Assembly (NCBI GenBank): GCA_017511715.1
Contig: JAFWJF010000002.1
Location: 135,781-199,780 of the forward strand
Direction: 5' to 3'
Source: Alphaproteobacteria bacterium
GTDB taxonomy: Bacteria; Pseudomonadota; Alphaproteobacteria; Rs-D84
Length of the DNA: 64,000 bases
The translations under genes were made by a program, and so were the position numbers. Shown in pieces: positions 21,840 through 64,000 of the stretch (position 1 is its first letter; each line of letters opens with the position of its first letter). The notes beneath the pieces were generated by a model that saw only the letters and a program-made list of their open reading frames with translations, searched no databases and was not told the origin of the DNA.

Positions 21840-21942
21840 ATATGCGCATGTATTATATACATTTTATTTCTTTTTTCAAATAAATAATTTCTATTAAATT
21901 TGGGAATAAAATCAGAGTGTTTTATTAAATGTGTGTTTGACA

Positions 21943-21971
21943 ATAATGTGTTTATGCTTTAACATCCTTTG
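21943..21971 (+). promoter_or_regulatory. sigma70-type promoter (TTGACA-N17-TAACAT) for the autotransporter gene
   Basis: TTGACAataatgtgtttatgcttTAACAT, with an AAAGGAGAG RBS before ATG 21997. Confidence 0.5.
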
Positions 21972-21996
21972 TGAGATAAGCAAAGGAGAGCACATC

Positions 21997-24900: not shown

Positions 24901-25914
24901 TTGTCTGTGGCTGTTCAGGAAAAATTAGCGTCTGGAAATACTGCTGCGATTGAACAAGCAACCAAGGCGGTGCATCCAGAAAAAGAAGCGGTCGTACAAT
25001 CTGTTTCTGCATCTGTTCAACATGCGGTTGTTAATTTGGCGGCAAATCGTATGTCAATGCCAAGAACAAGACGTGTTATGCCAGCGCATAATTATTATGG
25101 CAACGTTTATGGGCGCAATGGCGGTGATGTGAATTTTACTTCTGGCGGTATTTGGGCGCAAGGTTTGTTTAATAAATCTAGGCAGCATGATGCATTCAAT
25201 GGTTATACGCGTGGAATCGCGTTTGGATTGGATGGGACAATCAACAGGCATTGGACAATTGGTGCGGGGTATTCGTATGCTCATTCTGATATAGATGGAA
25301 CTGCGCGTAATACTGAAATTGATTCTAATACATTGTTCTTGTACGGTCAGTATAAACCTGCACAATGGTATGTGAATGCAATCGCGAATTATACAATGTC
25401 TGATTATTCTGAAATTGGAACGATTATTGATGATAAAACGATATTTGCAGACTATAAAGTTAATTCGTTTGGTGGCGCGTTGGCAACAGGATATGATTTC
25501 AGAAATGGCATAACCCCAGAACTTGGGTTGCGCTATATACATGTCAGTGCTGATGATTACGCAAATTCGTATGGTGTAAAAACACATATGGATGATAATG
25601 ATTTCTTGACAGGGGTTATCGGCGCAAAGTACGCATTTAATGTGGATGTGTCCAGACACACAAAAATCATGCCACAACTTAATGCGGGCTTTAAGTATGA
25701 TTTGTTGTCTGATAAACAAATTGCCACAGTTGCGATGCCGGGGATAAATGCTTATACAATCGAAGGGAATCGGTTGAACCGTATCGGAGGCGAATTTGGT
25801 ATCGGGTTAGGTATGCAGTATCGTACTTTGGAAATGTCTGTTAATTATGACATCGATGTCCGTGAAGATTATACTTCCCAGACAGGTATGTTGAAATTCA
25901 GATATAATTTCTAA
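21997..25914 (+). CDS. Pmp-like autotransporter (polymorphic-membrane-protein-type passenger with GGA[IV]/FxxN repeats, C-terminal beta-barrel)
   Basis: Extended signal peptide MKLSRTALKELTAAYRAVLRHGILCNAIALGLVAVPAMA. More than 20 GGAIY/GGAIA motifs and FTGN/FKGN/FEGN/FSGN motifs. C-terminal ~280 aa has alternating hydrophobic residues and ends ...KFRYNF. Confidence 0.8.
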   Translation: MKLSRTALKELTAAYRAVLRHGILCNAIALGLVAVPAMAERLAIEGGNPITETDKVYSNNSGQTFGGGIDNYGGNVTEINVTIQGNAANRGGGVNNDGVAIFNGGLIGGTTAGLGNQGSGGGAIANTGTLTINGTTIQNNVATNYGGGIYNSLNASGTSAAMVSVSNATLKGNSAGQFGGAIYSQGTKDIVTGALNITTSNFFNNSAANTKAGGAIYLLDSGNVTIKGAKFGGYDETDPENPISLGNTAGKGGAVYIGGVNAPTHGEATVTITKDESNNKTIFDHNVANGAGAEGYGGALVHNGYKTFLDLSNAEFTNNSATNQAGALLISVTAGTLRADGLAAGINNVLFANNTSAGQGGAMWNGAVAMITNTEFNNNSTTGNGEGGGAVDLGAVSKTAFDNVTFTSNTAASSGGAIATRNFSSGQNANAKLDIYSTTFKGNSAAMNGGAIYNNFYNSIGHTGSVYVSGATFGGTGTGEGNSAANGGAIYNNADGTQTGNMYITNSTFTGNFAVVPDTYTGATYKKEGVGGAIASSGSLTINASTFTGNTARTTGSGWGLGGALSTVTVDGFATDMTIIGSTFTGNSADVGGAVYGMLKATNQHGLSTITISGSTFEGNSAQAGSAIANFDIMSVSDTTFSGNTTFNIDDGGTVFLGSESITSFTGGDFTDNESNTVGGAIATRSINNDNSYAKLDIVDTTFKGNSAGTNGGAIDNNFYDSVGHAGSVYVSGATFGGTGTGEGNSAANGGAIYNHANATRTGSMYLTGVNFFGNTATTAGGAIYNEGVITLAADNTFKNIKAGGVANDIYNDGTLNIASGTTTLDGGVTGNGTLNIASGATLNIGSATVSQGTINLGGTLIADLVSGADPIFTATTFEGTGNLSLAIEKEGTYNLFGNAVFANAQQQITSTFYDLDWTTNDGKTVIATKKSADKIAEETGLTTESAVAVSHIVDAGSSDTGTKQIKELSVAVQEKLASGNTAAIEQATKAVHPEKEAVVQSVSASVQHAVVNLAANRMSMPRTRRVMPAHNYYGNVYGRNGGDVNFTSGGIWAQGLFNKSRQHDAFNGYTRGIAFGLDGTINRHWTIGAGYSYAHSDIDGTARNTEIDSNTLFLYGQYKPAQWYVNAIANYTMSDYSEIGTIIDDKTIFADYKVNSFGGALATGYDFRNGITPELGLRYIHVSADDYANSYGVKTHMDDNDFLTGVIGAKYAFNVDVSRHTKIMPQLNAGFKYDLLSDKQIATVAMPGINAYTIEGNRLNRIGGEFGIGLGMQYRTLEMSVNYDIDVREDYTSQTGMLKFRYNF
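23241..23520 (+). repeat. internal ~280-bp direct repeat, copy 1, inside the autotransporter passenger
   Basis: Encodes ATRNFSSGQNANAKLDIYSTTFKGNSAAMNGGAIYNNFYNSIGHTGSVYVSGATFGGTGTGEGNSAANGGAIYNNADGTQTGNMYIT. Near-identical at the nucleotide level to 24034..24313. Confidence 0.75.
24034..24313 (+). repeat. internal ~280-bp direct repeat, copy 2
   Basis: Encodes ATRSINNDNSYAKLDIVDTTFKGNSAGTNGGAIDNNFYDSVGHAGSVYVSGATFGGTGTGEGNSAANGGAIYNHANATRTGSMYLT. Confidence 0.75.
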
Positions 25915-44138: not shown

Positions 44139-44978
44139 TTAAGCAAAAGTTTTTGCGACCTTTTCAATTAATTCCCGGACGATATCGGCAGATTGCATAT
44201 CGCCATTTGGCGCATATTCAACAAACTCAAAATTTATTGCGTCACTAAACTCTTGGATAAAAGCGCGTGCAAATTCAACTGATAGCCCGTTTTGTTCCGG
44301 CACCCATACATCGCGGAAGTATTTCGGATCGATTCCATCAAAATCAAAAGATACAATAAATTTTTTTGTGCCGATGCGATTGCGAACTTCGTTAAATGCT
44401 TTGTCCCAATCGGCTTTTGTTTCAAGTTGTGCAGGTGTGCGGAAAAAGATATTGTTATCTTTGACATATTTCATTTCTGATGGTTCGCAAGAACGCGTGC
44501 CGAAAAAGAATATATTCTCAGGTTTTAACGCAGGTTTTTTGTGTTGTAATGACAGCCAACGCGAATCGCCTTCGCCCAAAAGATGTCGAACATTTGTTCC
44601 GTGTGGCGCGCCAGATGCTTCCCTTATAGATGATTCAGGGGTATGAATATCAAGGTGCGCATCAAAATAAACCAAACATAAATCTTCGTTTGGGTATTGG
44701 TCTGCAATACATGCAAAATGAGAAAAATTCACACTGTGGTCTCCACCAACAAAAATGTGTTTTTCGTGTGGGGTGTTATTATAAATTTTTTTATGAATAT
44801 TAAAAGCGTCACCAAATCTGTCGGTGATTGAATCAGGGTTAACATTATCTGGTGTGATAATTGTCCATGTTGCGTTTGGAAACATTTGTTGAATTGCGCG
44901 TGGTGCCAATGCCGGACCGCCGTTCAAAACCTTCGCGGTTGCGCCGCGACTGTATTCTATACCAAGGAATTTAATCAT
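44139..44978 (-). CDS. arginase-family hydrolase (agmatinase/formiminoglutamase-like)
   Basis: Ureohydrolase motifs FVGGDHS, VYFDAHLDIHTP and SFDFDGIDP. Confidence 0.75.
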   Translation of the reverse strand: MIKFLGIEYSRGATAKVLNGGPALAPRAIQQMFPNATWTIITPDNVNPDSITDRFGDAFNIHKKIYNNTPHEKHIFVGGDHSVNFSHFACIADQYPNEDLCLVYFDAHLDIHTPESSIREASGAPHGTNVRHLLGEGDSRWLSLQHKKPALKPENIFFFGTRSCEPSEMKYVKDNNIFFRTPAQLETKADWDKAFNEVRNRIGTKKFIVSFDFDGIDPKYFRDVWVPEQNGLSVEFARAFIQEFSDAINFEFVEYAPNGDMQSADIVRELIEKVAKTFA

Positions 44979-45876
44979 TATAACTCTCTATTACACTTTC
45001 TGCTGCATCTTGTATTTTTTGCAGACTTTTTTCGTAAGTTTCGCAATCGCGCGCAATCTCAGATTTATATGCATCGCGTAGATTTGATGCCATATAATAA
45101 CATGCACGCAGGTGCTGTGAACAATATTGATGACCGGTATTAAAGGCGTTTTGTCCGCGAACACGGCTTTCTGTATTTGCCCATTCGATATTTAGTGCAT
45201 TATCAATGTTTACCCATGGGTTATCGCCAGTTTGTACACCAACGGTTTGGTCCCAGTATTCTTTTATTTCTTCACTGGTTGCAGAAGATGAGTATTTCAA
45301 TCGAACAATCTTTTCGATTAATTCTTCTATTTTGTTTTTATACTTGGCATCAATTTGCGCCAGTTTTGCACTGCAATAGCAACGATTATAGGCGGTGTCT
45401 TCGCGTTTGCAATAATCTTCCATGCATTCTTTGTAATCTGCCATACACCGTTGGGAAGACGGACGTTCTGTTGCTGTGTAATAATTATTTGTTGTGGTGC
45501 GTGCCGTATTGACATTTCTGACACGTACAGGTGCAGTTGCTGCACGATAATTTATATTTGTGCCCGGTGTAAAAGGATTTGCCGCACGTGCTTTTGTATT
45601 TGTTCGTTGGACAACACGGCGTGGTTGTTGGGTCTGTGTATTTGGTGTTGTTTGTACCATTACGCCTGAACGAGGAACGACGGCGCGTCTGGCACTTGCT
45701 GTTGTGGCAGATATGTTCTTGGCGTTCGTATTCGTTTTAGTATTGTTTAACACATATGGATAAACATCATTGTGTGAAGTAATGGTGTTAAACTTTTTAG
45801 GAACATAACTATCAACAGCTGTTGCGCTTGTAGCAACCAAGACAGAAACCACGAAAAAGAAAAATCCTTTCTTCAT
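44971..45876 (-). CDS. Cys-rich secreted protein, CMDxFC-signature family, paralog 4
   Basis: Signal peptide MKKGFFFFVVSVLVATSATA, T/N/R-rich linker, then CMADYKECMEDYCKREDTAYNRCYCSA. Start 45876 chosen over 45957, which would overlap the upstream gene. Confidence 0.6.
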   Translation of the reverse strand: MKKGFFFFVVSVLVATSATAVDSYVPKKFNTITSHNDVYPYVLNNTKTNTNAKNISATTASARRAVVPRSGVMVQTTPNTQTQQPRRVVQRTNTKARAANPFTPGTNINYRAATAPVRVRNVNTARTTTNNYYTATERPSSQRCMADYKECMEDYCKREDTAYNRCYCSAKLAQIDAKYKNKIEELIEKIVRLKYSSSATSEEIKEYWDQTVGVQTGDNPWVNIDNALNIEWANTESRVRGQNAFNTGHQYCSQHLRACYYMASNLRDAYKSEIARDCETYEKSLQKIQDAAESVIESYND

Positions 45877-45920
45877 ATTTTGTATTCTAGTGTTTTTGAT
45901 ATAAATAAACAAGCACATTT

Positions 45921-46961
45921 TTATCTGTATAATGGTTCGGTTGGTCGAACATGGCAACCGTTTTTGCGTTTAAGTTCAATCGCGTTTTTATATCCGCGAC
46001 TGACAGCGCCTTTATAGCGTTGCTGTGCTACTTTTTGTAAAAAGGCATCACGTTCGTTTAACCAATCATTATGTATGTCGCCTTGATAATTATTTACAGC
46101 CCGTATCATTTCAGAATCGACAGATGATGTTTTCTTAGGAAGCCCTAGAAAAGTTCTAAATTGTTGTAATGCCGTGCCAGGACCACTGGCCATGCCGGCC
46201 AAGAATACATCTGTGGCAATAACGTCAGGTAAACGTTCGAAACCATAGGGTTTCCAGTATTTTTCATAATAGACAGTTTCTGCCTCTGCGCGTGAATTTA
46301 CCCGAACGCCTGCACATTGTTTTCCAGAACCGATGCCATAACAAGTATAACCGCAACGGTCGTTTTTTATTGTTCCACATGCGCCTTCTTTTCTGAATAT
46401 AGTAATCAAGCCTTTTTCCAGGGCAGGGTGTATTTTTTCATATTTTCCCGTGGTCAAAATTGTGTTTGTAAAATTATTGTCGCGTGCTGCAGGATAGCAC
46501 GAACCGCCGACTATAAAATTATTTTCAATCACATCGCCACCACCAATCGTTCTTCCAGAAAAGTGTGATGGTTGCTGTTGACCGGTTTGTGTTGGCGAAG
46601 GGAGTGTCGGGCCTGGTGTGGTTTGTGTGCCGGCTTGTGTGGTATGGCATATTTTTGTATCGTCAGGATATTTTGCACAGTAGGTATCGTGTGGCAGGTT
46701 TTGCCTGTCGCTTTCTTGTTGTTTCTGTTCTTGGTCCATTTGGTCAATGATACGGTCAGTGTAAACTTCTTCGCCTGGGACGATATTTAATTCTTGATAT
46801 GCCTTTTTATCAAGCAATGGTTTGTATCCTTCGCGTGCAATATCAATGCGTGCTTTGAAAGACATATCTTGAAAAGTTCCCGGAAACGATGCCACAGACA
46901 ATTTTCCCTGTGCGGGGCTGCACAGGACAAATAAACAAGCAAGATAAAAAATCTTTTTCAT
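45921..46961 (-). CDS. secreted GH108-family muramidase-like protein with peptidoglycan-binding C-terminal domain
   Basis: Signal peptide. FRKEGACGTIKNDRCGYTCYGI aligns to the GH108 catalytic block (L.HEGGYVNDP.DPGG.T.YGI). ...YYEKYWKPYGFERLPDVIATDVFLAGMASGPGTALQQFRTFLGL matches the PG_binding_3 region. Confidence 0.55.
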   Translation of the reverse strand: MKKIFYLACLFVLCSPAQGKLSVASFPGTFQDMSFKARIDIAREGYKPLLDKKAYQELNIVPGEEVYTDRIIDQMDQEQKQQESDRQNLPHDTYCAKYPDDTKICHTTQAGTQTTPGPTLPSPTQTGQQQPSHFSGRTIGGGDVIENNFIVGGSCYPAARDNNFTNTILTTGKYEKIHPALEKGLITIFRKEGACGTIKNDRCGYTCYGIGSGKQCAGVRVNSRAEAETVYYEKYWKPYGFERLPDVIATDVFLAGMASGPGTALQQFRTFLGLPKKTSSVDSEMIRAVNNYQGDIHNDWLNERDAFLQKVAQQRYKGAVSRGYKNAIELKRKNGCHVRPTEPLYR

Positions 46962-52518: not shown

Positions 52519-52548
52519 AAAATGCCCGATTGGGCATTTTTTATTTGT
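52519..52548. terminator. bidirectional rho-independent terminator
   Basis: AAAAATGCCCgattGGGCATTTTTTA. Confidence 0.7.
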
Positions 52549-53626
52549 TTGTTAATTGTAATTCAATTCGGCGATTAAGTTGCATGCTTTTTGCATCTTT
52601 GCCTTGGGCAATCGGGTACATGTCCCCAAAACCAGATGGAATCAACCTTTGTACGGAAACGCCATTTTTTATCAATTCGTCTGCGACAGATGCCGCGCGC
52701 AACAATGATAATTGCATGTTATTCCAATAGGCTTTTGTCCCGGGAATAACAAGTCTGCTGTCGGTATGTCCGTCAATACGAACAATCCAATCAATATCTT
52801 TTGGAATTTTGTTTTCCAAGCCTTTGATAAGGTCTGCCAGTATTTTTATCTGTTTTTTTCCGGCATTAGATATTTTATAAGAACCACTGCCGAACAAAAT
52901 ATCGCTTGATAATATAAATCTGTCACCTTCTGGTTTTATGCCCGTGGTTTCGCCCTGTCCCAGTGCGGTTTTTACTTGCTTGTAAAAATCTGATTGGTAT
53001 TGAGCCAACGAATTTAATTCTGCCACTTTTTCCGCAAGTGCTTTGTTTAACCGATTTGACATTTGCGTATATTCTGTTTCTTGTTCTTTGGCCCGTTGTT
53101 CTGCCGCGCGAAGTTGGCTTTCTAATTCGGTGATACGGGCGTTCAATTCAGACTGTTTTTTACTCATTTCATCATTAAGTTCGTGACGTTCAGATTCCAG
53201 TCGTGCCATTTCAGTCTTTGCCGCGTTTGCCAATTGCAGTTGTTCTGTTAACGCTGCGATTTGTGCCGCCAGTTGTTCTTGTTGAACGGTCAAGGCACTG
53301 ATTTGGTCTTCATAGGCATTCGCCAGTTTCATTTGGTTTTCTATTTGTCCTTCTTGGTTTTCCAGTGCATCACGCGCCGCCAGTAATAATTGTTCTGCTT
53401 CCTGTTTATCGGCGTTCATTTGTTCGATTTGTTCAGCCTGGGCTTGTTTTGCTTGTTCCAATTCAGCAACTTTCTTTGCACCGGTGTTTTTATTAAATAC
53501 ACTGGTTGTTGTCCACAAGAACACAAATACGATAAGCAAGAATATTAAAATGATAACCAGGTTAGAAAACAAATCTACAAACCCTGGCCATGCGTTAGTT
53601 CTTTCTTTGAATCGAGTGTTTAACAT
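52541..53626 (-). CDS. MotB/OmpA-like stator subunit with ~200-aa periplasmic coiled coil
   Basis: N-terminal TM LVIILIFLLIVFVFLW, a long Q/E/A-rich coiled coil, and a C-terminal OmpA_C-like domain ...IVRIDGHTDSR...QLSLLRAASVADELIKNGVSVQRL... Confidence 0.65.
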   Translation of the reverse strand: MLNTRFKERTNAWPGFVDLFSNLVIILIFLLIVFVFLWTTTSVFNKNTGAKKVAELEQAKQAQAEQIEQMNADKQEAEQLLLAARDALENQEGQIENQMKLANAYEDQISALTVQQEQLAAQIAALTEQLQLANAAKTEMARLESERHELNDEMSKKQSELNARITELESQLRAAEQRAKEQETEYTQMSNRLNKALAEKVAELNSLAQYQSDFYKQVKTALGQGETTGIKPEGDRFILSSDILFGSGSYKISNAGKKQIKILADLIKGLENKIPKDIDWIVRIDGHTDSRLVIPGTKAYWNNMQLSLLRAASVADELIKNGVSVQRLIPSGFGDMYPIAQGKDAKSMQLNRRIELQLTNK

Positions 53627-53651: not shown

Positions 53652-54800
53652 TTAATTGTTTGTTTTGAACAAATAATCGATTGCTGTTCCAATGTATCTG
53701 GAATAAGCATCAAAAAGTTGTCTGTCTTTCTTGGTCTTTGGCAAAGTATTTGGGTGCGCCATTAAGTATTGATGCAGGGCGTTGGTGTTGTTAAAACGTG
53801 TAATGCCATCGCCTAAATCTATATTTTTCCCAGAAACACAAATTATTTTCAGGTTGATATTTACGCCTTCTAATGTATCGGCAAAGCATAATTCGATGCG
53901 TTTCAGAACATTTTGTAAAACGTCTGCATCGTTATTAAGTGTCGCGATAAACATTTTTTCACCCGAACCAATTGCAACAAGTGCAGGATATTTTCCGTCA
54001 ATTCTTATCAAATCACGAACAACATATTTGGCATCTATGAATGCATCGTGAATCTGGGAAATCTTGGTGAAAGTATCCGCGCTTACAGGTGCGCTTTCTG
54101 CGACTTTTGCTATATTTATGTTGTTCGTTGGGTTTTGCAATACGTATTGCGACATGAAATCAGTTAATTCTTGGAATATTGTATTTTGTGCAAACTGTAA
54201 TTGCAGCCCAAGAAAGCCCACCACCAAACTTCCTGCCAGACCAAGCAAAGAACTGGTGAACGCGGTTGCCATACCTGATAACGGTCCCGCCATGGCGATT
54301 TGCATGTTTTGCAGTAATTCTGGGTCATCAAAATCGATAGCCATCAATAATTCTGCGAAGCCACCAACCGTCACAATCAGTCCCCAAAATGTGCCAAGCA
54401 GACCTAAGAATATTAAAGTATTTGTTATATATCGCACAGAATCACGTTTGTCTTCGATTCGGATGCTGACCAAATCAAGCAGTTCTGACATGGTGTTCGT
54501 TGTAATATGTATATGGCGGTTGTGTAATGCCATTGAAATAGGGCGTAATAATTTCGGGGTATATCCGTAATCTGCGCGACCTGCGAAATATGCGTGCAAC
54601 CACTTATATTCCGGCAAAAGCCCAAACATGCTTAAAAAACAAAGCCCGATTCCAAACAAGGTTGTGCCAATAATGATTCCGTTCAATATAATATTAGTTA
54701 TCGCGATATTGAATACTGTCTGCCAGAAAACCACCGCAAAAGCCAGCAAAACTGCGGTAAATATCGACATTATGTTAAGATTTCTGTGAAATCGTTTCAT
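53652..54800 (-). CDS. MotA/TolQ/ExbB proton-channel family protein with extra C-terminal ~150-aa domain
   Basis: TM helices and ...LGLLGTFWGLIVTVGGFAELL..., ...AMAGPLSGMATAFTSSLLGLAGSLVVGFLGLQL (MotA/ExbB signature), followed by a soluble C-terminal region. Confidence 0.65.
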   Translation of the reverse strand: MKRFHRNLNIMSIFTAVLLAFAVVFWQTVFNIAITNIILNGIIIGTTLFGIGLCFLSMFGLLPEYKWLHAYFAGRADYGYTPKLLRPISMALHNRHIHITTNTMSELLDLVSIRIEDKRDSVRYITNTLIFLGLLGTFWGLIVTVGGFAELLMAIDFDDPELLQNMQIAMAGPLSGMATAFTSSLLGLAGSLVVGFLGLQLQFAQNTIFQELTDFMSQYVLQNPTNNINIAKVAESAPVSADTFTKISQIHDAFIDAKYVVRDLIRIDGKYPALVAIGSGEKMFIATLNNDADVLQNVLKRIELCFADTLEGVNINLKIICVSGKNIDLGDGITRFNNTNALHQYLMAHPNTLPKTKKDRQLFDAYSRYIGTAIDYLFKTNN

Positions 54801-56185: not shown

Positions 56186-56216
56186 AAAACACCCACAATC
56201 GTGGGTGTTTTTTTGT
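56186..56216 (+). terminator. rho-independent terminator (same hairpin as 18572..18606)
   Basis: AAAACACCCACAATCGTGGGTGTTTTTTTG. Confidence 0.7.
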
Positions 56217-56520
56217 TGTGATAATTCCAGAGATTAATTCCCCACCTGGTGCGGGGAGGGTGCCAATAAATATTGTGTATCAAGGGAAACCTCCCTCCCG
56301 TCCTTCGGACGTACTCCCCCCAAGGGGAGAATTGAAAGTTCTCCTCCTGTGGAGGAGTACCCGCAGGGGGAGGTGGTCTTTTATAAAAAACTTGGCAATC
56401 CGCCCCGTCACCTTCGGAGTCCCCCCGGGCGGGGAATTATCTCCCCACAAAAGGTGAGAATCAGATCCCTAACAAAGGGATGAAGCGCAATTTCCCCTAG
56501 CGTGTTTTTTTCTTTGGGGC
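56217..56520. other. GC-rich, hairpin-dense ~300-bp element (candidate structured ncRNA or REP-like cluster)
   Basis: At least five perfect short hairpins: CTCCTCCtgtGGAGGAG, CTCCCCccaaGGGGAG, CGTCCttcgGGACG and CACCttcgGAGTC (two C-UUCG-G loops), ATCCCTaacaaAGGGAT. GC content is clearly above the surroundings. The Pro-rich ORF 56218..56457 is judged an artefact. Confidence 0.4.
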
Positions 56521-56527
56521 GGTTTTC

Positions 56528-59488
56528 TTATTTTTTTTGTACTTTATTTCCATCACAGTAATAAGCATCGCTTTGCCATACGTTGTCTTCAACATTTTCA
56601 ATGAAATCGTTAACCTTTTCTAAAACGGTACAAGCATCCTTTTCTTCTTCGCTTAACGCTTCGTTATTGTTGGTGCCGTGTTTATAAGGATTGTCGGTAT
56701 TAAATTTTGGGGACAGTTTTTCAGACGCTGTTGCAAGGGGCATCCAACATTTTAAATATTCATCTGAGGACAATTTTGGGTCATATTTGAATAGCTCTAA
56801 ATGTGTTGGACTTATCACTTTTAGCTTCTCATTAATTTCATCTATGCATTCTCTTATTTCTGACTCAGATTTTTTTTTGCTATCCGTATCGGATGTTTGG
56901 ATGCCTTGCCCAGAAATGAGGTTTGTAAGAGCATCGGTTCCCACTGCATTAGACATCGTACTCAACACGTTGTTTTTTACATTATTTGTGTTTTTGTTCT
57001 TTGCGGCGTTCACACGGTCATTTGTTGCATCAAAAGCTTTGTTTAGGGCTTCTATTGCGTTGTCTTTTTCTTCATTTGTTGGGTTGTTTGACAATGTTAC
57101 ACCAATCATTTTACCTGCAACGACCGCACCGAAACTTTCAATCAATTTATTCAGCACCCTGTCGGTATCAACTGTATCTGCGAATAAATCTTGTGCCGTT
57201 TGATTTTTCGCCTTTTTCAAATCGTTTTTGCAGTTTATGTTTTTAACAGATAATGCGCTTGGTGGGAAAGAGCTGAATGTTAATTTATCTGTTTCTTGCA
57301 CACCGGCTTCTTGGAGGCATTTTTTCAATTTATCCAGTGCGTCTGTTTCCTCTTTTGCCGCTTCTTCTAACGCCTTGGTATCTTTTTTCTTTTTTATCAA
57401 TTCACCAAGTTTACCGTTGATAAGGGAATTACCAACCACACCGACAACAACTCCCGCACCGGCAGCGATAGCACCGCCCGTCACGCGTTTTTTAGATGTT
57501 GATGCCGCATCGTCAATTTTTGCTTGGTCGGCTTCTGATTGCAACATTTGGGCACGATAAAGCGATGCGTAGTTGCCATTAGTTATTCCGATGTTTTCTT
57601 CGTCATAAAGCCCACTGGTTGCCCTGTCATAAATAACTTCGCTTTCAATGCCTGGTTTCATACCAAGCGCATTTTTACGTTCTTTAAGGTCTTGGGCAAG
57701 GGCAAGATATTGTCCGCGTAAATTCATAAGTTCTTGGTCATTTGCGCCCGGTAATTCAATTTCTGTGGGGCCTGCCTTTACCTGTTTATCTTCGCCGTAT
57801 GTGCAACGCATTGTTTCAATATATGCCGCCATATCTGCCGCCGCTTCTTTATCAGCCGATTGTTCCGACAGACCTTGTGCCAGTTGCATGCCACCGATTC
57901 CAGTCGCAGCGGTGGTCAATGCAGTCAAAGTTTTATTTGCGGTTGATTGTTCTTTGGCCTTGGCATCTTCATATGCTTTTTGTTTTTCTTCTAAATCTTT
58001 TTGTCTTTGTTCGTCGGAGCGGTTATCGATTTTTTCACATTTGCCGTCTTTCAACTTGTAAAGTTTTTTATTACAGTCTGTGGCAATACATGTGTTTTTA
58101 GATACATCCCAATATCCATCGTCAGCATGCATTTCGTTTAATTCGGCAACTTTGCATCTTTTTTTCGTGCATTGACCGTTTACAACATCTTCTTCGGGTG
58201 TGGGACATTTTTTGTTTTTACATGCGGTTCCATCGGCGGTTATTTCATAGTCGTCCGATATACATTTTATTGCAATACAAACACCGTCTTCCAATTTATA
58301 GCCGTTTTTGCTTACATTATTTTTTATCATACGTTTTGCGTCTTTTTCACTGCATAGTGTTTGTTCGCATTTTGTTTTATCGGCATTTAATGTATAACCT
58401 TTGACCGTATCGCACGCAAATTCGCATTGTCCGTTAATCCATTTACTTTTGTTGGTTGCGTTGGCGGCACGTATTTGTTCATCGCTGCATCTGACCTGAA
58501 CACATTTTTGTTGAGATTCATCCCAATCGTCTTCTGGTTTTGTGCATTTGTCATGGACACATTTGTTTTTGTTATTCAAATGATAGCCGTTTACACAGCC
58601 TTTTGGGACACATTCTTTTCCGTTCCATTGTGGCTCTGTTCCTTTTGCGGTCTGTACTTCTTGAATTTCGTATTCTGAGCATCTGACTTTTGTACAACCT
58701 TTGCCGTCAATCCAGTCTTCTTCTAAGCTTTCACATTCGTCTTTGACGCAAACATCGTTATTTGTGTGATAACCTGTCACGCAATCCGTGGGAACACATT
58801 TCCCGTTTCGAACGGTAACTTTTTTTGCATGGTTGTTTGTTTTCAGGTCTGATTCTTCTGTCTTGGAACACTTAACTTTTTCACAGATAGAGTCAGATTT
58901 TTTGTATTCGCCTGGTTCACCGATGCAGGTATCAATAACACATCTACCGTTAACTACTTTTGTAGATTGGGCGTTTTTTAGACTGGCAATTTCAGCAGAA
59001 GTGCAATTAACCTTTACACAACTGTTGTTTTGTATTTCATATTCGCCCCGTTCGCCGATACAGGTATCTATGACACATTTTTCTTTTTCCCATTTTACAG
59101 TGGCTGCATTGTGGGTATTTATTAACTCGTTTTTTTGATTTTCTGTGCATTCGGTTGGTATAATAATAGGTTCGTCTAAAATACGACTATCATCTTCAAG
59201 TTTTATATTAAGATTTGCTTTGGCATCAACTTTTTGTGTTTTATAGCCCATGTAAGATATTTGTAGTTTTGTCGCATCGTCTGGAATCGAAAAGTTAAAT
59301 TCCCCGTTTTCGTTAGTTGCTTGACCTCTGTTTGGTATTGGGGTCCCATTGGCATCCAATGGTCGTACGCTTGCTCCTGCCAGTGGGCCTTCTTTGTCAG
59401 AAACCGTTCCGCTGACGTTCAGAGCAAACACAGGCATTATGGACAATGCAAAGAATAGGCCGGTAAAAATAATACTTATTTTTTTCAT
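56528..59488 (-). CDS. large secreted Cys-repeat protein (CarboxypepD_reg-like N-domain, tandem ~40-aa Cys modules, Gly-zipper/KE C-terminal region)
   Basis: Signal peptide. N-domain LNVSGTVSDKEGPLAGASVRPLDANGTPIPNRGQATNENGEFNFSIPDDATKLQISYMGYKTQKV. About 12 modules such as CVIDTCIGE(R/P)GEY....C.KVKC and CVP.(D/G)CV.GYH.NN..CV.D.C. C-terminal part carries GGAIAAGAGVVVGVVGNSLINGKLGELIKKKKD. Confidence 0.7.
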   Translation of the reverse strand: MKKISIIFTGLFFALSIMPVFALNVSGTVSDKEGPLAGASVRPLDANGTPIPNRGQATNENGEFNFSIPDDATKLQISYMGYKTQKVDAKANLNIKLEDDSRILDEPIIIPTECTENQKNELINTHNAATVKWEKEKCVIDTCIGERGEYEIQNNSCVKVNCTSAEIASLKNAQSTKVVNGRCVIDTCIGEPGEYKKSDSICEKVKCSKTEESDLKTNNHAKKVTVRNGKCVPTDCVTGYHTNNDVCVKDECESLEEDWIDGKGCTKVRCSEYEIQEVQTAKGTEPQWNGKECVPKGCVNGYHLNNKNKCVHDKCTKPEDDWDESQQKCVQVRCSDEQIRAANATNKSKWINGQCEFACDTVKGYTLNADKTKCEQTLCSEKDAKRMIKNNVSKNGYKLEDGVCIAIKCISDDYEITADGTACKNKKCPTPEEDVVNGQCTKKRCKVAELNEMHADDGYWDVSKNTCIATDCNKKLYKLKDGKCEKIDNRSDEQRQKDLEEKQKAYEDAKAKEQSTANKTLTALTTAATGIGGMQLAQGLSEQSADKEAAADMAAYIETMRCTYGEDKQVKAGPTEIELPGANDQELMNLRGQYLALAQDLKERKNALGMKPGIESEVIYDRATSGLYDEENIGITNGNYASLYRAQMLQSEADQAKIDDAASTSKKRVTGGAIAAGAGVVVGVVGNSLINGKLGELIKKKKDTKALEEAAKEETDALDKLKKCLQEAGVQETDKLTFSSFPPSALSVKNINCKNDLKKAKNQTAQDLFADTVDTDRVLNKLIESFGAVVAGKMIGVTLSNNPTNEEKDNAIEALNKAFDATNDRVNAAKNKNTNNVKNNVLSTMSNAVGTDALTNLISGQGIQTSDTDSKKKSESEIRECIDEINEKLKVISPTHLELFKYDPKLSSDEYLKCWMPLATASEKLSPKFNTDNPYKHGTNNNEALSEEEKDACTVLEKVNDFIENVEDNVWQSDAYYCDGNKVQKK

Positions 59489-59501
59489 TTGCTTTTACTC
59501 T

Positions 59502-60917
59502 TTATTTAGAAGCCCTTTGTTCGCTGCTTGAACCACTGCCAGACGATGTTGTTGAACTAGAAGAAGTTGCCGTTCTGGAACCATTGTCCGTTTTTTCGGC
59601 ATCTTTCTTGGCTTGTTTTTCTTGTTCTTTTGCGTCTTTTTTCGCTTGTTTGTCCGCTTTCTTTTGTGCTTTTTCTGCCTCTTTGGCTTCTTTCTTTTCT
59701 TGCTTTTCTTCTTCTTTTTTCAGTTTTTCTTCTTCTTTGACGGCTTTCTTGGCCTTTTGGGTGTCAAGTGCGCGGTCTATTGCCCCCGATGTGACCAGAC
59801 CAACCGCCGTACCAACACCAGAACCCAACATCGCAGATGATGCACCGGTTTGTGCGCGTGTTTCACGATATGCGTTTTCACGATATGTTGTGACATTTAT
59901 ACCAAACCATTCCTGCATACATACAAACGTGTCACCGGCATAGCGTTTGCGTGATGCCATTGGCGTTGATTGATCGTTGCCCGCAAAGAAATTAACAGTG
60001 AATACACAATCAAATGAACGTTCATCAAACATTGCACCCAATTTTCGACAATTTGACATCATCATATCACGCAATGCATACAAGCGTTCTTCATCTTTCT
60101 TTACTTCCTTTTCTGCGTTTTCGCGCAATTTGCCGATTGCAGTGCCAAAACGATTGGCAAGGCCTGAATCTGATTCTGTGCACTCTTTCGCAATTGTTGA
60201 ACATTTTTGTATTGCGGCATCTGCATATGTCTTGCCCAGGCACTTATTATATGTTGTCCCACATTCATTTATTATGCACGCATTGTATTGGTTGCCACAA
60301 TTTATCACTTTATCATATGACGATAAACGAACATTCATATCGCGGTCAGCCGTGATTTCAGTGGAAAACATGCGGAACTCTTCGGCGGTACATTCTGTGG
60401 CGCGCCGGCAGGCGTTTAATTTATCACCAAATATTGTTGCGCCATCCAATGCACATTCAGTGAAATCTTTGCCGCATTTTTCAATCATACATTTACGCAG
60501 GCCATTGTCACAGGTATTGGTGCTTGTTGCAAGGGCTTTTTCTTGGGCAGATTGGGCGGATGTGGTTGCTTCGTTTGCCGCCAATGCCGCACGTTGTTTC
60601 CGTATTTGTTCCGCAAATGAATTGTCTGTGTCAGCAGATTCAAGAACTGTTGATACCGCAACCTCAAATTCAGATGACTTGTTTATTATATTAGGTTTTG
60701 TTTCCAGTGCTTCTGATGTTTCTGATTTCGTTTCTGACGATGGTTCTGTCAGTGTTTCAGAAACCTGTTCAGTTTTTTGTGTCGGCACTGCGATTGAACG
60801 ACGCGTTGTCACCCCAGGCGCGTTGCGAACCGCAACACGAGTCGCCGCTTCTGCATCCAATGCGAACGCCATAATTATGGATAACATTGCAATAAAAAAT
60901 CTTTTGTCTTGTGCCAT
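59502..60917 (-). CDS. Cys-rich secreted protein, family paralog 6, with Gly-zipper segment and Lys/Glu-rich tail
   Basis: Signal peptide MAQDKRFFIAMLSIIMAFALDAEA, then CDNGLRKCMIEKCGKDFTEC. More than 25 Cys. C-terminal GASSAMLGSGVGTAVGLVTSGAIDRAL followed by a KE-repeat tail. ATG 60917 lies 2 nt after the stop of the upstream gene; the ORF-track start 60938 overlaps it. Confidence 0.6.
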   Translation of the reverse strand: MAQDKRFFIAMLSIIMAFALDAEAATRVAVRNAPGVTTRRSIAVPTQKTEQVSETLTEPSSETKSETSEALETKPNIINKSSEFEVAVSTVLESADTDNSFAEQIRKQRAALAANEATTSAQSAQEKALATSTNTCDNGLRKCMIEKCGKDFTECALDGATIFGDKLNACRRATECTAEEFRMFSTEITADRDMNVRLSSYDKVINCGNQYNACIINECGTTYNKCLGKTYADAAIQKCSTIAKECTESDSGLANRFGTAIGKLRENAEKEVKKDEERLYALRDMMMSNCRKLGAMFDERSFDCVFTVNFFAGNDQSTPMASRKRYAGDTFVCMQEWFGINVTTYRENAYRETRAQTGASSAMLGSGVGTAVGLVTSGAIDRALDTQKAKKAVKEEEKLKKEEEKQEKKEAKEAEKAQKKADKQAKKDAKEQEKQAKKDAEKTDNGSRTATSSSSTTSSGSGSSSEQRASK

Positions 60918-60919
60918 CT

Positions 60920-61783
60920 TTATTTCAACCTTTCGCATGCAGTGTCATAAAATTTACAAAGTTGTTCCGCAACTGTTTTTTCATAATCAAAACCGATATC
61001 GCATTTATTGCGCATGTTGTTTTTACAAACACGTGCGATGCAATCTTGTTTTGCCTTGCCCCCAGTGCAGGATGCCTGGGCTGTTGCCAATTTTTGTTCG
61101 CGTGTCTTTTTATATGAATTGATAATGTTTTGTAATAACTTGGTCGCGTTCGCAATTGATGTGTTGCGCGCCGATGTCAATGAAGAACGTATCTTGGTCA
61201 AAAATTCATCGCAGCCAACCGATAAAACACTGCATTCGGAAAAATATCTGTCAAATTCTGTGTCCGATTCGCATTTTCTGTAGTCTGCCGTGCAACGTTT
61301 TGCATCAACAATACAGGTCGTGATTTCAGAAGAACAAGAACTTTGAGACTTTTTTTCGTTCGCTTGTTGTGCCAAGTTTGTAAATTCTGTGGCAATTCCC
61401 GCCGCCGTACACGATTGTTCAATTAACTTATCATAATTATCTGTCACATCATCCGGGGTGCATCCAGAAACTTTCTTAAGACATTGTTCGGTCGCCCAAA
61501 CATATCGTGCACCAGGATCAGACGGTGCATTTTTCAATTCTTTATCAGATATTATATACTTTGTAGATGTACCAACAGATATGTTGCGCATTGTGGTCGA
61601 TTTAGTCGGCGTACCCGCAGATGCAGAACCGCAATATTGACAACGTGCCGCAGGATTTGCACCAATGTTTATGGCACACGCTGAATCAAGGCATCGTGTC
61701 AAATTAGCCACAGAACACGCACCATAAACCAATGTTGGCACGCACATCAAACACCCGAAAAAAATAAAATCGCGAATTTTCAT
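60920..61783 (-). CDS. Cys-rich secreted protein, family paralog 7
   Basis: Signal peptide MKIRDFIFFGCLMCVPTLVYGA, then CSVANLTRCLDSACAINIGANPAARCQYCGS, a signature variant. 30 Cys in 287 aa. First gene of a three-gene minus-strand operon. Confidence 0.6.
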   Translation of the reverse strand: MKIRDFIFFGCLMCVPTLVYGACSVANLTRCLDSACAINIGANPAARCQYCGSASAGTPTKSTTMRNISVGTSTKYIISDKELKNAPSDPGARYVWATEQCLKKVSGCTPDDVTDNYDKLIEQSCTAAGIATEFTNLAQQANEKKSQSSCSSEITTCIVDAKRCTADYRKCESDTEFDRYFSECSVLSVGCDEFLTKIRSSLTSARNTSIANATKLLQNIINSYKKTREQKLATAQASCTGGKAKQDCIARVCKNNMRNKCDIGFDYEKTVAEQLCKFYDTACERLK

Positions 61784-61918
61784 TTTCTCCCTTGCGGAAT
61801 ATTATATCAAAAAGCCTGTATCAAAGCAAAGAAAAAAATACCAGTATCGTTTAAGTAAAAATTCTGGACAGGCCATAATTTTTTGTGCTAGACTTTTTCC
61901 AAAAGAGAGAATTGTTCC

Positions 61919-64000
61919 ATGAAATTTATTAGATTTTTTGGCATTTTATTTTTTTTAATTCCTTGCATGTCGTGGGCCGCATCGTCATCCGATTTCCAAA
62001 ATGCATCGCAATTATTGTCCGCGGCGCGACGTGGTGATACGCGGACTGTTCAGATTTTAATCAATAACGGCGCAGATGTAAATTATGTCGATTCAACAGG
62101 TTTGTCATTGGTGTGTACTGCGGTTATGAATAATGACACGCGCGCGATTCAAATCTTGCAGATGTATGGCGCGGACGCGTCAAATTGCGACAGGCAAATA
62201 AAAAATTATAGGCAAAAAAATCGTGTCGCCACACGTGGCAAAGAATACGGATTCTTTAGTGGGTTATCTTCTTCACATGTGTTGTTATTGTCTGCTGTTG
62301 GGGTTGCTGCTGTGATTGGGGGCGTTGCATTGTTGACAGATGCTTTTGATGCAGAAAATAATAATTATACGCCTTCGTCTGGCGGTTCGCATTCTGGCAG
62401 TGGCAGTGGTGGCAGTGGTGGCAGTACTACACCGTCAACGAATAAACTTTTTGCACAAAATTTACCGTATGGTCCGGCGTGTTCGGGAACTTCGTGCCCG
62501 ACAGATTTTACAACATGGCAAGACAGTGATGATTTTACTTATATGTCTGATATATCTACGCAAAATACATTTAATTATTTAATGGTTGCGCGTGCTTATA
62601 ATGCGTTTGTTCGGGGGTATTTGGGGATGGGCACAATAAGAATTACTAACGATTTAGCACCGTTTGATTTGTCATCGTTGCCTTTTGCAGAAGGCAGTAT
62701 CCCAGGCGGCGGAAAACCTGTGAATGTCGCGCTTATAACTGGTTCTGGGGTTAATGCCACGGGCAGTGCTATGGATGGTTTGTCTTCGTGGCTTGATTCT
62801 ACAAAAATAAGTCAGATTCAGGCGGCCTGTGCATCAGGGACAACATCAACCGAATGTCAAACTGCAGTTAATGCGGCATTGAAGACTTCTCATAAGTATT
62901 ATAATTTATCTGGGGAACTGGGTGAAACGCCGGTGGAAAATACGACGTTTGATTTGGTAAATGGTACAACAGTATTTGGCAGTGCAACAAATGAAGATAC
63001 TAAGTTGGCAAAAATAATCGCTGGCTGGGAAGGCGATGAACGCACAAACCCTGATTTTTATGGTTTTATTCCAAATGGTCAATTGACGGTTTATAAAGTA
63101 GGGACGGGCGCAACAGGGGTTTCTGATTATAAAAATTATGCGGCGATTTTTGATGCACTGCAATTGAAGGATACTTCGGGGAATTATGTGGCGAATGTTG
63201 TTGCTAATCTTGCGTTGCCTTCTGAATCTTTTGGTTTGTCTTATGCCACAGTTGATGGGGCAAAGATTTTATATGATGCGGCAACAACTGCACCATTAAA
63301 GACAGCGGTTTTTACGGGGCTTGTCGATAATTATTATAATTTGAATACAGGAGATGATTCAACGGTTAATAAACCTTCGCAGGATATGACGTGTGCTTTT
63401 TCGGGGTGTGCCCAAACAGGTAATGTGGCAGCCGTGTTAAAGAATCCTGTTATTATAGTTAATTCGGTGGGGCGGTCTTTATATGGTTTGGGGGAATCTT
63501 CGTCTTTAAGTCCCCAGGTGGCAACTTTTGAGAACTTTGCGCCGGTTGTTTATAGCGGTTTACAGAATTTGTTCATGAGTGTTGTTGCGGTTAAACCAAA
63601 TGCCACAACCGGAACGGCAGATTTAACTGTCGATGAATATAACGCATCGGGGGCGGGCAAATTAGAGTTGTCAACATGGGCAGACCCGGATGATTCTACA
63701 ATAACTTATTCTTCGCGTATGTGTGGTTTGGCAGGGACTGGTAATGCTGGTGCGATGAACCCGTGGTGTTTTGCGGCACCTGGGATCACTGATTTAGAAG
63801 CAGCGGCGGCGATGGCTGGTTCGGTTGCCTTGGTTAAAAGTGCGTTCGATTATATGACACCGCAACAGATGTTCTTGCTTTTGGCGCTGACTGCCGATGG
63901 TCCGTATTTGGGGACAAACCCGGGGACTAATTTGGCGTGGGCATCAAAAAAAGATTTGATTACTTATTTGCAAAATATGTACAGTTTGCCAGCAAATTTA
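61919..64000 (+). CDS. ankyrin-repeat protein with large C-terminal G/T/S-rich domain (3' end truncated by window edge)
   Basis: Own translation from ATG 61919: MKFIRFFGILFFLIPCMSWAASSS.., ANK repeats (AARRGDTRTVQILINNGADVNYVDSTGLSLVCTAVMNNDTRAIQILQMYGADA), a hydrophobic segment VLLLSAVGVAAVIGGVALL, a GSGSGGSGGS linker, then more than 500 aa still open at 64000. Absent from the ORF track because edge-truncated. Confidence 0.6.
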   Translation, partial: MKFIRFFGILFFLIPCMSWAASSSDFQNASQLLSAARRGDTRTVQILINNGADVNYVDSTGLSLVCTAVMNNDTRAIQILQMYGADASNCDRQIKNYRQKNRVATRGKEYGFFSGLSSSHVLLLSAVGVAAVIGGVALLTDAFDAENNNYTPSSGGSHSGSGSGGSGGSTTPSTNKLFAQNLPYGPACSGTSCPTDFTTWQDSDDFTYMSDISTQNTFNYLMVARAYNAFVRGYLGMGTIRITNDLAPFDLSSLPFAEGSIPGGGKPVNVALITGSGVNATGSAMDGLSSWLDSTKISQIQAACASGTTSTECQTAVNAALKTSHKYYNLSGELGETPVENTTFDLVNGTTVFGSATNEDTKLAKIIAGWEGDERTNPDFYGFIPNGQLTVYKVGTGATGVSDYKNYAAIFDALQLKDTSGNYVANVVANLALPSESFGLSYATVDGAKILYDAATTAPLKTAVFTGLVDNYYNLNTGDDSTVNKPSQDMTCAFSGCAQTGNVAAVLKNPVIIVNSVGRSLYGLGESSSLSPQVATFENFAPVVYSGLQNLFMSVVAVKPNATTGTADLTVDEYNASGAGKLELSTWADPDDSTITYSSRMCGLAGTGNAGAMNPWCFAAPGITDLEAAAAMAGSVALVKSAFDYMTPQQMFLLLALTADGPYLGTNPGTNLAWASKKDLITYLQNMYSLPANL

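Follow-up and report, generated by a model that had tools for sequence, protein, structure and literature searches.

A conserved putative operon of cysteine-rich secreted proteins in Candidatus Enterousia (Rs-D84) and the envelope structure that it may encode

What might a set of cysteine-rich secreted proteins contribute to the envelope of a bacterium that is thought to need other cells? Members of the alphaproteobacterial GTDB order Rs-D84 are uncultured bacteria, widespread in the gut; a 2025 paper describes genomes that are smaller than 1 Mb and lack most biosynthesis pathways and standard transporters, and proposes a probable dependence on partner cells (PMC12306168). A search of one literature library found no paper that joins Rs-D84 with cysteine-rich proteins. 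We analyzed a stretch of 64,000 nucleotides (nt) from such a genome, hereafter the window (GenBank assembly GCA_017511715.1, contig JAFWJF010000002.1, positions 135,781 to 199,780). On its minus strand lie three adjacent genes for cysteine-rich secreted proteins, which we call A, B and C. Our reading, to which we give a probability of roughly 45%, is that they specify an envelope complex specific to 'Ca. Enterousia'/Rs-D84 that displays an exposed, recombining rod for contact. NCBI taxonomy places Enterousia in Alphaproteobacteria incertae sedis.

Gene A (60920..61783) encodes 287 amino acids (aa) with 22 cysteines, gene B (59502..60917) encodes 471 aa with 15 cysteines, and gene C (56528..59488) encodes 986 aa with 41 cysteines. 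With the start of B at 60917 these open reading frames (ORFs) are separated by 2 and 13 nt, as stated in a preliminary description of the DNA. This start is preceded by an AAGG ribosome-binding site and agrees with the start in relatives; an alternative ATG at 60938, which would yield a protein of 478 aa, has no such site. All three proteins begin with hydrophobic signal peptides. Cysteine makes up 7.7% of A, 3.2% of B and 4.2% of C (8.9% of the head of C, defined below), compared with 0.88% in the 19 other long ORFs of the window, and the earlier characterization of the three as secreted and rich in cysteine is thus upheld.

Our survey covered 86 distinct related loci, with counts for the third gene taken over 56 of them and cysteine counts for the core of B over 81. 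In each of the 85 loci of sufficient extent, A and B are neighbours. The shared strand, the tight spacing and a gene order conserved in the 86 loci, across dozens of species, fit the single three-gene operon that had been proposed, and a terminator scan found no convincing intragenic terminator on the minus strand of A, B and C. An origin of the genes as a mobile element or phage was rejected, since their chromosomal synteny is fixed in all loci.

Protein A carries a signal peptide of 21 or 22 residues. All 20 cysteines of the mature part are conserved, and exactly 20 are present in 78 of the 86 loci. The 782 homologues that we found are of near-constant length and 60–83% identical; one of them belongs to Candidatus Enterousia merdequi, where it is annotated as hypothetical. 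When 1.84 billion representative proteins were searched exhaustively with a profile, just 64 clusters came up, all of one protein kind, and the family of A is therefore closed and restricted to the lineage. Relatives of A occur in at least 247 genomes in a scan of one genome per GTDB species. The 80 genomes listed for A are gut or rumen metagenome-assembled genomes labelled Enterousia, Alphaproteobacteria (one Rickettsiales) or proteobacterium, the exceptions being one Muribaculaceae and one labelled merely 'bacterium'. AlphaFold predicts an all-helical protein (pLDDT 71.6, pTM 0.34), and A gave no sequence or profile match in the PDB, Pfam or NCBIfam. Residues G21, A22 and C23 are invariant. 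However, the sequence ..TLVYGAC.. departs from the lipobox [LVI][ASTVI][GAS]C, with Y at -3 and G at -2. Having no cysteine close to their cleavage sites, B and C likewise lack a lipobox.

Protein B consists of a signal peptide, a low-complexity linker rich in Ser, Thr and Glu, a core (aa 95-395), a glycine-zipper and a tail of low complexity, rich in Lys, Glu and Ser. Core identity is 58–81% among 570 homologues and 58–88% across the lineage. The core contains 15 invariant cysteines, a number found exactly in 80 of the 81 loci. The zipper, AMLGSGVGTAVGLVTSGAI (59778..59834, minus strand; aa 362-380 of the 471-aa form), reaches a Kyte-Doolittle maximum of 1.42 and is near-invariant in the alignment of B (A4). 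Searches of B against Pfam, NCBIfam and PDB profiles gave no matches. The length of the tail differs strongly among loci. Part of it is encoded by a 33-nt tandem repeat (59625..59707, minus strand; 2.5 copies, 78% matches, Tandem Repeats Finder score 85), which probably drives the variation in tail length between strains.

Judged by its alignment with relatives, gene C is a fusion of a hypervariable head made of cysteine modules with a conserved anchor domain. The order from the N-terminus is signal peptide, CarbopepD_reg domain, seven cysteine modules, an anchor that we call the D-core, and a variable tail. The first domain, a CarboxypepD_reg-like beta-sandwich (aa 25-106; 59171..59416, minus strand), matches Pfam PF13715 (CarbopepD_reg_2) with E 8.9e-12 and 45.3 bits, above the gathering cutoff of 32.2, and its earlier assignment is therefore confirmed. 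Profile searches of the PDB show its homology to the extension found at the N-terminus of SusC, RagA and TonB-dependent receptors (E 3e-15 to 1e-9; entries 8aa4, 5t3r, 6ytc and 6sli). The other PDB matches of C were weak ones to complement factor H, due to cysteine content. Unlike SusC and RagA, C has no TonB box, plug or 22-strand barrel, and its domain stands at the far end of a putative rod of cysteine modules; Pfam gave no match in C to the TonB-dependent transporter plug (PF07715) or barrel (PF00593). A database search with C found only 11 homologues of the full architecture, the other matches being N-domains of TonB receptors that cover about 10% of the query.

The cysteine modules, delimited by cysteine spacing and module alignment, occupy aa 114-490 (58019..59149, minus strand). 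The seven modules are 45-66 aa long and carry 4 or 6 cysteines each at regular spacing, 34 in the whole head, which could close 17 disulfide loops. They follow the pattern C-x21-25-C-x4-C-x11-15-C-x4, with an extra hairpin in three of the seven. Pairs of the form C-x4-C occur 15 times in aa 114-484, whereas 20,000 shuffles gave 2.07 on average and never more than 9. The preliminary description had counted about 12 modules of about 40 aa and regarded the entire 986-aa product as a cysteine-repeat protein. Both statements have to be revised, since the modules are confined to aa 114-490 and aa 497-986 consist of the conserved anchor and the variable tail. A recent duplication of modules at the DNA level was ruled out; no tandem DNA repeat is present across the head, and the modules are therefore old.

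AlphaFold modelled aa 107-500 of C with a pLDDT of 83.7 and a pTM of 0.33, a low value of the latter being expected for a rod shape. Each module is predicted to form one short helix followed by two or three beta-hairpins. Foldseek found no match to the model in the PDB at E <=1e-3 (best 1.2e-3; fold Z of at most 4.0, which is weak), and the top matches, likewise weak, are mostly tandem EGF, LRP, Pfs25 and TNFR-type ectodomains. Pfam EGF models remained below their cutoffs in C, the best being cEGF with E 0.35 and 11.2 bits (cutoff 26.6). The modelled head looks like an EGF-type disulfide-hairpin rod, a likeness that does not establish membership in the family. For the EGF/TNFR-like architecture suggested before our analysis, the fold matches are weak and no Pfam EGF or TNFR profile matches. 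Eukaryotic EGF and TNFR ectodomains (fibrillin cbEGF, NELL, Pfs25/Pvs25, LRP2 and RANK) are tandem hairpin rods, as is the model of the head. However, the modules of C open with an alpha-helix, their cysteine pattern is not the six-cysteine consensus, and no calcium-binding consensus is seen.

The D-core (aa 497-700; 57389..58000, minus strand) is a near-invariant block in the alignment of C (A2). It contains one invariant cysteine, C562 (codon 57803..57805), and exactly one cysteine in 56 of 56 loci. The block ends in a glycine-zipper, VTGGAIAAGAGVVVGVVGNSLING (aa 669-692; 57413..57484, minus strand), which has a Kyte-Doolittle maximum of 1.83, is followed by KKKK, and is kept both in the alignment and in the separate D genes of other loci. 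The variable tail (aa 701-986; 56531..57388, minus strand) has 6 cysteines. Neither tail nor D-core matches a Pfam family above its cutoff, and the Pfam Gly-zipper models found no match in C.

Searches of A, B, C and their sub-regions against Pfam, NCBIfam, PADLOC and PHROGs yielded CarbopepD_reg only, all other hits being below cutoff or artefacts of low complexity. With the PDB searches included, the impression that the operon corresponds to no characterised system holds, and by the same searches A, the B core and the D-core are undescribed families. Chlamydia OMP families were not listed for the three proteins at E values up to 1. The autotransporter domain PF03797 was not found in A, B or C, and the same search detected it in the window gene at 21931..25914 (plus strand). 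Its product is an autotransporter of 1327 aa that has Chlamydia PMP repeats and, at the C-terminus, a beta-domain; the organism therefore has an outer membrane (OM) and uses type V secretion.

The third gene varies greatly in its composition among related loci. The D-core is present downstream of B, beside rplI-rpsR-rpsF, in 62 of the 86 loci; 16 loci are too short for its presence to be judged, and it is missing in 7 of the 69 loci whose downstream sequence exceeds 6 kb. Some loci that lack it have a long B tail with cysteines (464 aa and 22 cysteines in L030, for example). A head is fused to the N-terminus of the D-core in 33 loci. In at least 12, one or more separate variable genes stand between B and a short D gene, in 8 the D gene follows straight after B and is nearly headless, and in 7 a long cysteine-rich extension follows the D zipper. 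Such extensions are also found after the B zipper. Residues 488-807 of C are 60% identical (local BLAST) to the product of a fourth gene that stands by itself in L007 and L011 and encodes 470-494 aa with a signal peptide of its own, and a different cysteine-rich protein with a signal peptide only is encoded between B and this D gene. In L009 the D-core comes first and the cysteine-rich extension follows the zipper. D genes span 306-1588 aa and 1-113 cysteines, their heads range from 0 to about 1100 aa, and 26 of the 56 have a CarbopepD_reg domain.

Relative to the window, A has a median identity of 56%, the B core of 60% and the D-core of 55%, and A and B are 50–88% identical across related loci. 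In contrast, heads are 22–32% identical to that of the window over partial alignments, or cannot be aligned. The core of the system is A-B(-D), which is conserved, and the cysteine-module part is exchangeable.

A second form of the anchor is found in a sister clade, whose A is 50–56% identical to A of the window. There an OmpA-family domain forms the C-terminus of D, in 26 of the 56 D genes (Pfam E 1e-13 to 2e-17), and in those species the base of the protein is therefore tied to the wall. The OmpA domain PF00691 was not found in A, B or C of the window, and D genes of the window's clade lack it. Proteins of the YiaD type resemble the orthologues of D in having a zipper rich in Gly, Ala and Val, a linker and an OmpA-family domain. 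However, as YiaD is generally described, C differs from it in having neither lipobox nor OmpA domain and in carrying large cysteine-rich domains on both sides of the zipper. In related loci, too, both sides of the glycine-zippers are rich in cysteine. Cysteine counts are mostly even in heads and in both kinds of tail, and are even and conserved in A. CxC modules like those of the head proteins that have a signal peptide only also occur 3' of the zipper. A single-pass inner-membrane (IM) anchor through the zipper, with the N-terminus out and the C-terminus in, was rejected in view of the even and often very high cysteine counts, CxC modules and OmpA domains after the zipper.

Closely related strains provide a view of how the gene changes. 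Metagenome scaffolds L093-L095, the longest of 158,785 bp, are 100% identical to the window. The related locus L096 is 98.3% identical to the window in the DNA of rplI-rpsR and at most 89% identical in the C gene, where blocks have been replaced. We calculated synonymous divergence (dS) and the ratio of nonsynonymous to synonymous divergence (dN/dS) between the window and L096 by region, using the Nei-Gojobori method. For rplI, dS is 0.056 and dN/dS is 0.04. Within C the corresponding values are 0.13 and 0.16 for the D-core, 0.14 and 0.76 for the CarbopepD_reg region, 0.21 and 0.35 for the modules in aa 286-490, and 0.36 and 0.51 for the tail in aa 701-888. Synonymous divergence is saturated in aa 107-285 of the head (39% aa identity) and aa 889-986 of the tail (34%), each of which is effectively another sequence. 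The uneven dS between regions indicates recombination with divergent alleles.

From these observations a working model can be drawn. Its platform would consist of A, a soluble, secreted and all-helical protein with about 10 disulfides, the helical B core with its 15 cysteines, and the D-core. The exchangeable cargo would be a rod of EGF-like modules laddered by disulfides and often capped by a CarboxypepD_reg domain; in the window the D-core carries this cargo at its N-terminus, giving the 986-aa protein. A C-terminal OmpA-type peptidoglycan-binding domain would fix the base in about half of the orthologues. The rod would extend outward from the wall and most likely reach the cell surface, mediate adhesion to or recognition of a partner cell, host surface or particle, and diversify through recombination and the gain and loss of modules. 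Since fusion and fission link them, the A, B and D parts may be expected to assemble into a complex. From the hypervariability and unconstrained length of the rod we infer that it is exposed and mediates contact. The general logic of a tip, a variable repeat stalk and a wall anchor is already known from bacterial surface proteins. Stalk-type surface proteins, including those anchored by OmpA domains, share with C a signal peptide, a beta-sandwich tip, variable tandem modules and a conserved anchor, and they resemble its orthologues that end in an OmpA domain and its mosaic, presumably exposed, part. In contrast to the Ig-like or beta-helical modules of stalk proteins, those of C are helix-plus-hairpin units predicted to be laddered by cysteines. 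C also differs from them in its undescribed anchor (D-core and zipper) and in having two dedicated, invariant partners, A and B, and its exposure is a deduction.

The cysteines of A, B and C are probably disulfide-bonded, because the proteins have signal peptides, their cysteine counts are even and conserved, and a DsbA-like gene lies in the syntenic neighbourhood. This DsbA/thioredoxin-like gene is located about 9 kb upstream of the operon in relatives (L007:1-519 and L011:220-1044), in the order polA-dsbA-recO-surA-tpiA-grpE, and fits a heavy load of periplasmic disulfides in the lineage. The odd number of cysteines in the B core and the single cysteine of the D-core suggest an intermolecular B-D disulfide. 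However, B keeps its 15 cysteines where D is missing, and a B-B link is therefore equally possible.

Several results weigh against an exposed rod built on such a complex. We recognised no route of export across the OM in A, B or C, whether a beta-barrel, an autotransporter domain or a known C-terminal secretion signal, and an OmpA domain with a Sec signal alone would put everything in the periplasm. The window's own clade does not have the OmpA domain in any case. Hydrophobicity of the glycine-zippers is marginal (1.4-1.8), so that their topology is ambiguous. The third component is, judged by the 7 of 69 loci without a D-core, dispensable. Moreover, dN/dS is below 1 in every region that was measured, and the fold matches of the modelled head are statistically weak.

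Some of these points would be expected if A, B and D formed a purely periplasmic scaffold, a lattice or tether, cross-linked by disulfides, between IM, peptidoglycan and OM in which the head is a spacer rather than a ligand tip. Such a scaffold would stabilise the envelope of an organism with a reduced genome, in analogy to the cysteine-rich OM complex of Chlamydia or the Pal, Lpp and OmpA tethers. It would account for the presence of Sec signals only, with no recognisable device for OM export, for the true OmpA peptidoglycan-binding domain in 26 of 56 orthologues, and for the very strong conservation and invariant cysteine counts of A and B. Its location would also agree with that of related architectures: the CarbopepD_reg domain of SusC-type transporters, to whose N-domains that of C is homologous, is periplasmic, and a glycine-zipper joined to an OmpA domain is the periplasm-facing architecture of OM lipoproteins such as E. 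coli YiaD. The chlamydial outer membrane complex (omcA-omcB and MOMP) offers an analogy only. It too comprises cysteine-rich secreted envelope proteins, encoded in an operon of a host-dependent Gram-negative bacterium with a reduced genome, and an intermolecular disulfide cross-link is plausible in both. However, A, B and C are not similar to it in sequence or profile, A and B are predicted to be all-alpha, and the Rs-D84 lineage keeps its genes for peptidoglycan synthesis (PMC12306168). A head that ranges from 0 to about 1100 aa, in genes with 1-113 cysteines, would be hard to fit into a compartment of fixed width, near-identical strains have swapped head segments, as exposed proteins typically do and periplasmic ones do not, and the third component is missing in some genomes. 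With no recognisable route across the OM, the scaffold is nevertheless a serious rival, if less probable than the exposed rod.

The complex could instead be more elaborate than in our preferred reading. A, B and the D-core might form a disulfide-locked, OM-spanning organelle unique to Rs-D84/Enterousia and representing a new class of cell-contact apparatus, with its own route of export and anchoring. Glycine-zipper helices would cross the OM, and EGF-like rods would attach to, and perhaps feed from, a partner cell; we regard this as unlikely. Another function for the head would be the capture of a glycan, peptide or vesicle that is then passed to an envelope transporter, offsetting the missing uptake systems. 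The lineage is without standard transporters for sugars, amino acids and peptides (PMC12306168), C has at its N-terminus a homologue of the extension that SusC, RagA and TonB-dependent transporters carry, and a gene pair, one member with a weak MotA/ExbB-like match and the other with an OmpA domain, is syntenic beyond rpsF-rplI. However, plug, barrel, TonB box and transporter domains were not found in A, B or C, just 26 of the 56 D genes have the CarbopepD_reg domain, and hypervariable heads argue against a single conserved substrate, which together make this function quite improbable. Least plausible is a secreted toxin or pore-forming effector set whose zippers would insert into a target membrane, as in VacA-type proteins, and whose head would bind a receptor. 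The zippers of B and D are indeed flanked by extracytoplasmic cysteine-rich parts, and the variable head is reminiscent of a receptor-binding region. However, the wall-binding OmpA domains of orthologues argue for retention on the producer, family searches found no immunity gene, secretion system or toxin domain, and the conservation of A and B, in at least 247 species genomes, is like that of housekeeping components.

Conserved in at least 247 species genomes, the operon belongs to a small number of gene sets that are specific to the lineage and so widely kept. It stands beside ribosomal protein genes and combines an invariant platform with a rapidly recombining head. These traits make it a concrete candidate for whatever contact or envelope structure underlies the partner-dependent lifestyle of 'Ca. 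Enterousia'. Three new protein families would be defined, by A, the B core and the D-core respectively. The operon offers a test of whether bacteria independently built rods of EGF-like cysteine modules, and it would be useful for strain typing and for enrichment with antibodies to A or B.

The window encodes four further secreted cysteine-rich proteins (3..2075, minus strand; 2569..4800, plus; 4820..7285, plus; and 44971..45957, minus). They have 328-821 aa and up to 37 cysteines, without a Pfam match, and their mature domains open with C-x6-C-x4-C-x9-C-x-C-S, as in CRDAYFTCMDQFC...RCVCS; the protein of 2569..4800 ends in a glycine-zipper. With A and B they account for about 16% of the window. 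A and B themselves have in common a short motif, C-x6/7-C-x4-C, and hhalign aligns them over 70 columns with 58.6% probability and E 9.6e-5, which is weak evidence of homology. Homology of A or B to the other cysteine-rich ORFs was considered on the basis of BLAST without composition correction (E 1e-4 to 1e-6 in a database of 206 sequences) and is not established, the profile hidden Markov models (HMMs) of A and B giving no significant match to them. The family signature that the preliminary description had seen in A, B and other ORFs thus holds at the level of the motif and fails at that of profile homology, and the 'family' is, on this evidence, a motif-level resemblance only.

Upstream of gene A lies a divergent intergenic region of 135 nt. 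By direct reading of the minus strand it contains a strong ribosome-binding site, AAGGGAG (61787..61793), and a candidate extended -10 element, TGATATAAT (61801..61809), located 17 nt 5' of the start codon. Consensus scans for promoters and terminators gave an overall result no better than chance. Rfam found no matches in the operon and its flanks. The gene on the other side (61919..64000, plus strand) extends past the edge of the window. Its product, about 1120-1250 aa long, has a signal peptide and carries two ankyrin repeats in its N-terminal part, the remainder having no family match. In related loci this gene is always head-to-head with gene A, and it could be regulated jointly with the operon or even form part of it.

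At the other end, the terminator scan identified a hairpin, AAAACACCCACAATCGTGGGTGTTTT (56186..56211), between gene C and the convergent gene rplI. Its sequence is kept at the equivalent site in many related loci, and it is likely a bidirectional terminator for C and rplI. Between this hairpin and the stop codon of C is a GC-rich insert of about 316 nt (56212..56527) that is not present in close relatives. The 360-nt intergenic region that holds it has a GC content of 49%, compared with about 40% for the window. The predicted RNA folding of the insert is much stronger than that of shuffled sequences (z -4.81), inverted repeats lie at 56209-56228 and 56433-56452, and pieces of 45-88 nt reappear elsewhere in Enterousia loci (L086, L044, L038 and L015). 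Rfam found no match in 56212..56527; the insert could be a miniature mobile element or a new small RNA.

Across rpsF-rpsR-rplI from the operon, and syntenic with it in the window's clade, is the gene pair 53652..54800 and 52541..53626, both on the minus strand. The former encodes a membrane protein of 382 aa that weakly resembles MotA/ExbB, and the latter a 361-aa protein with a coiled coil and an OmpA domain. Together they resemble a MotAB- or ExbBD-like stator; the lineage is reported to have no flagella.

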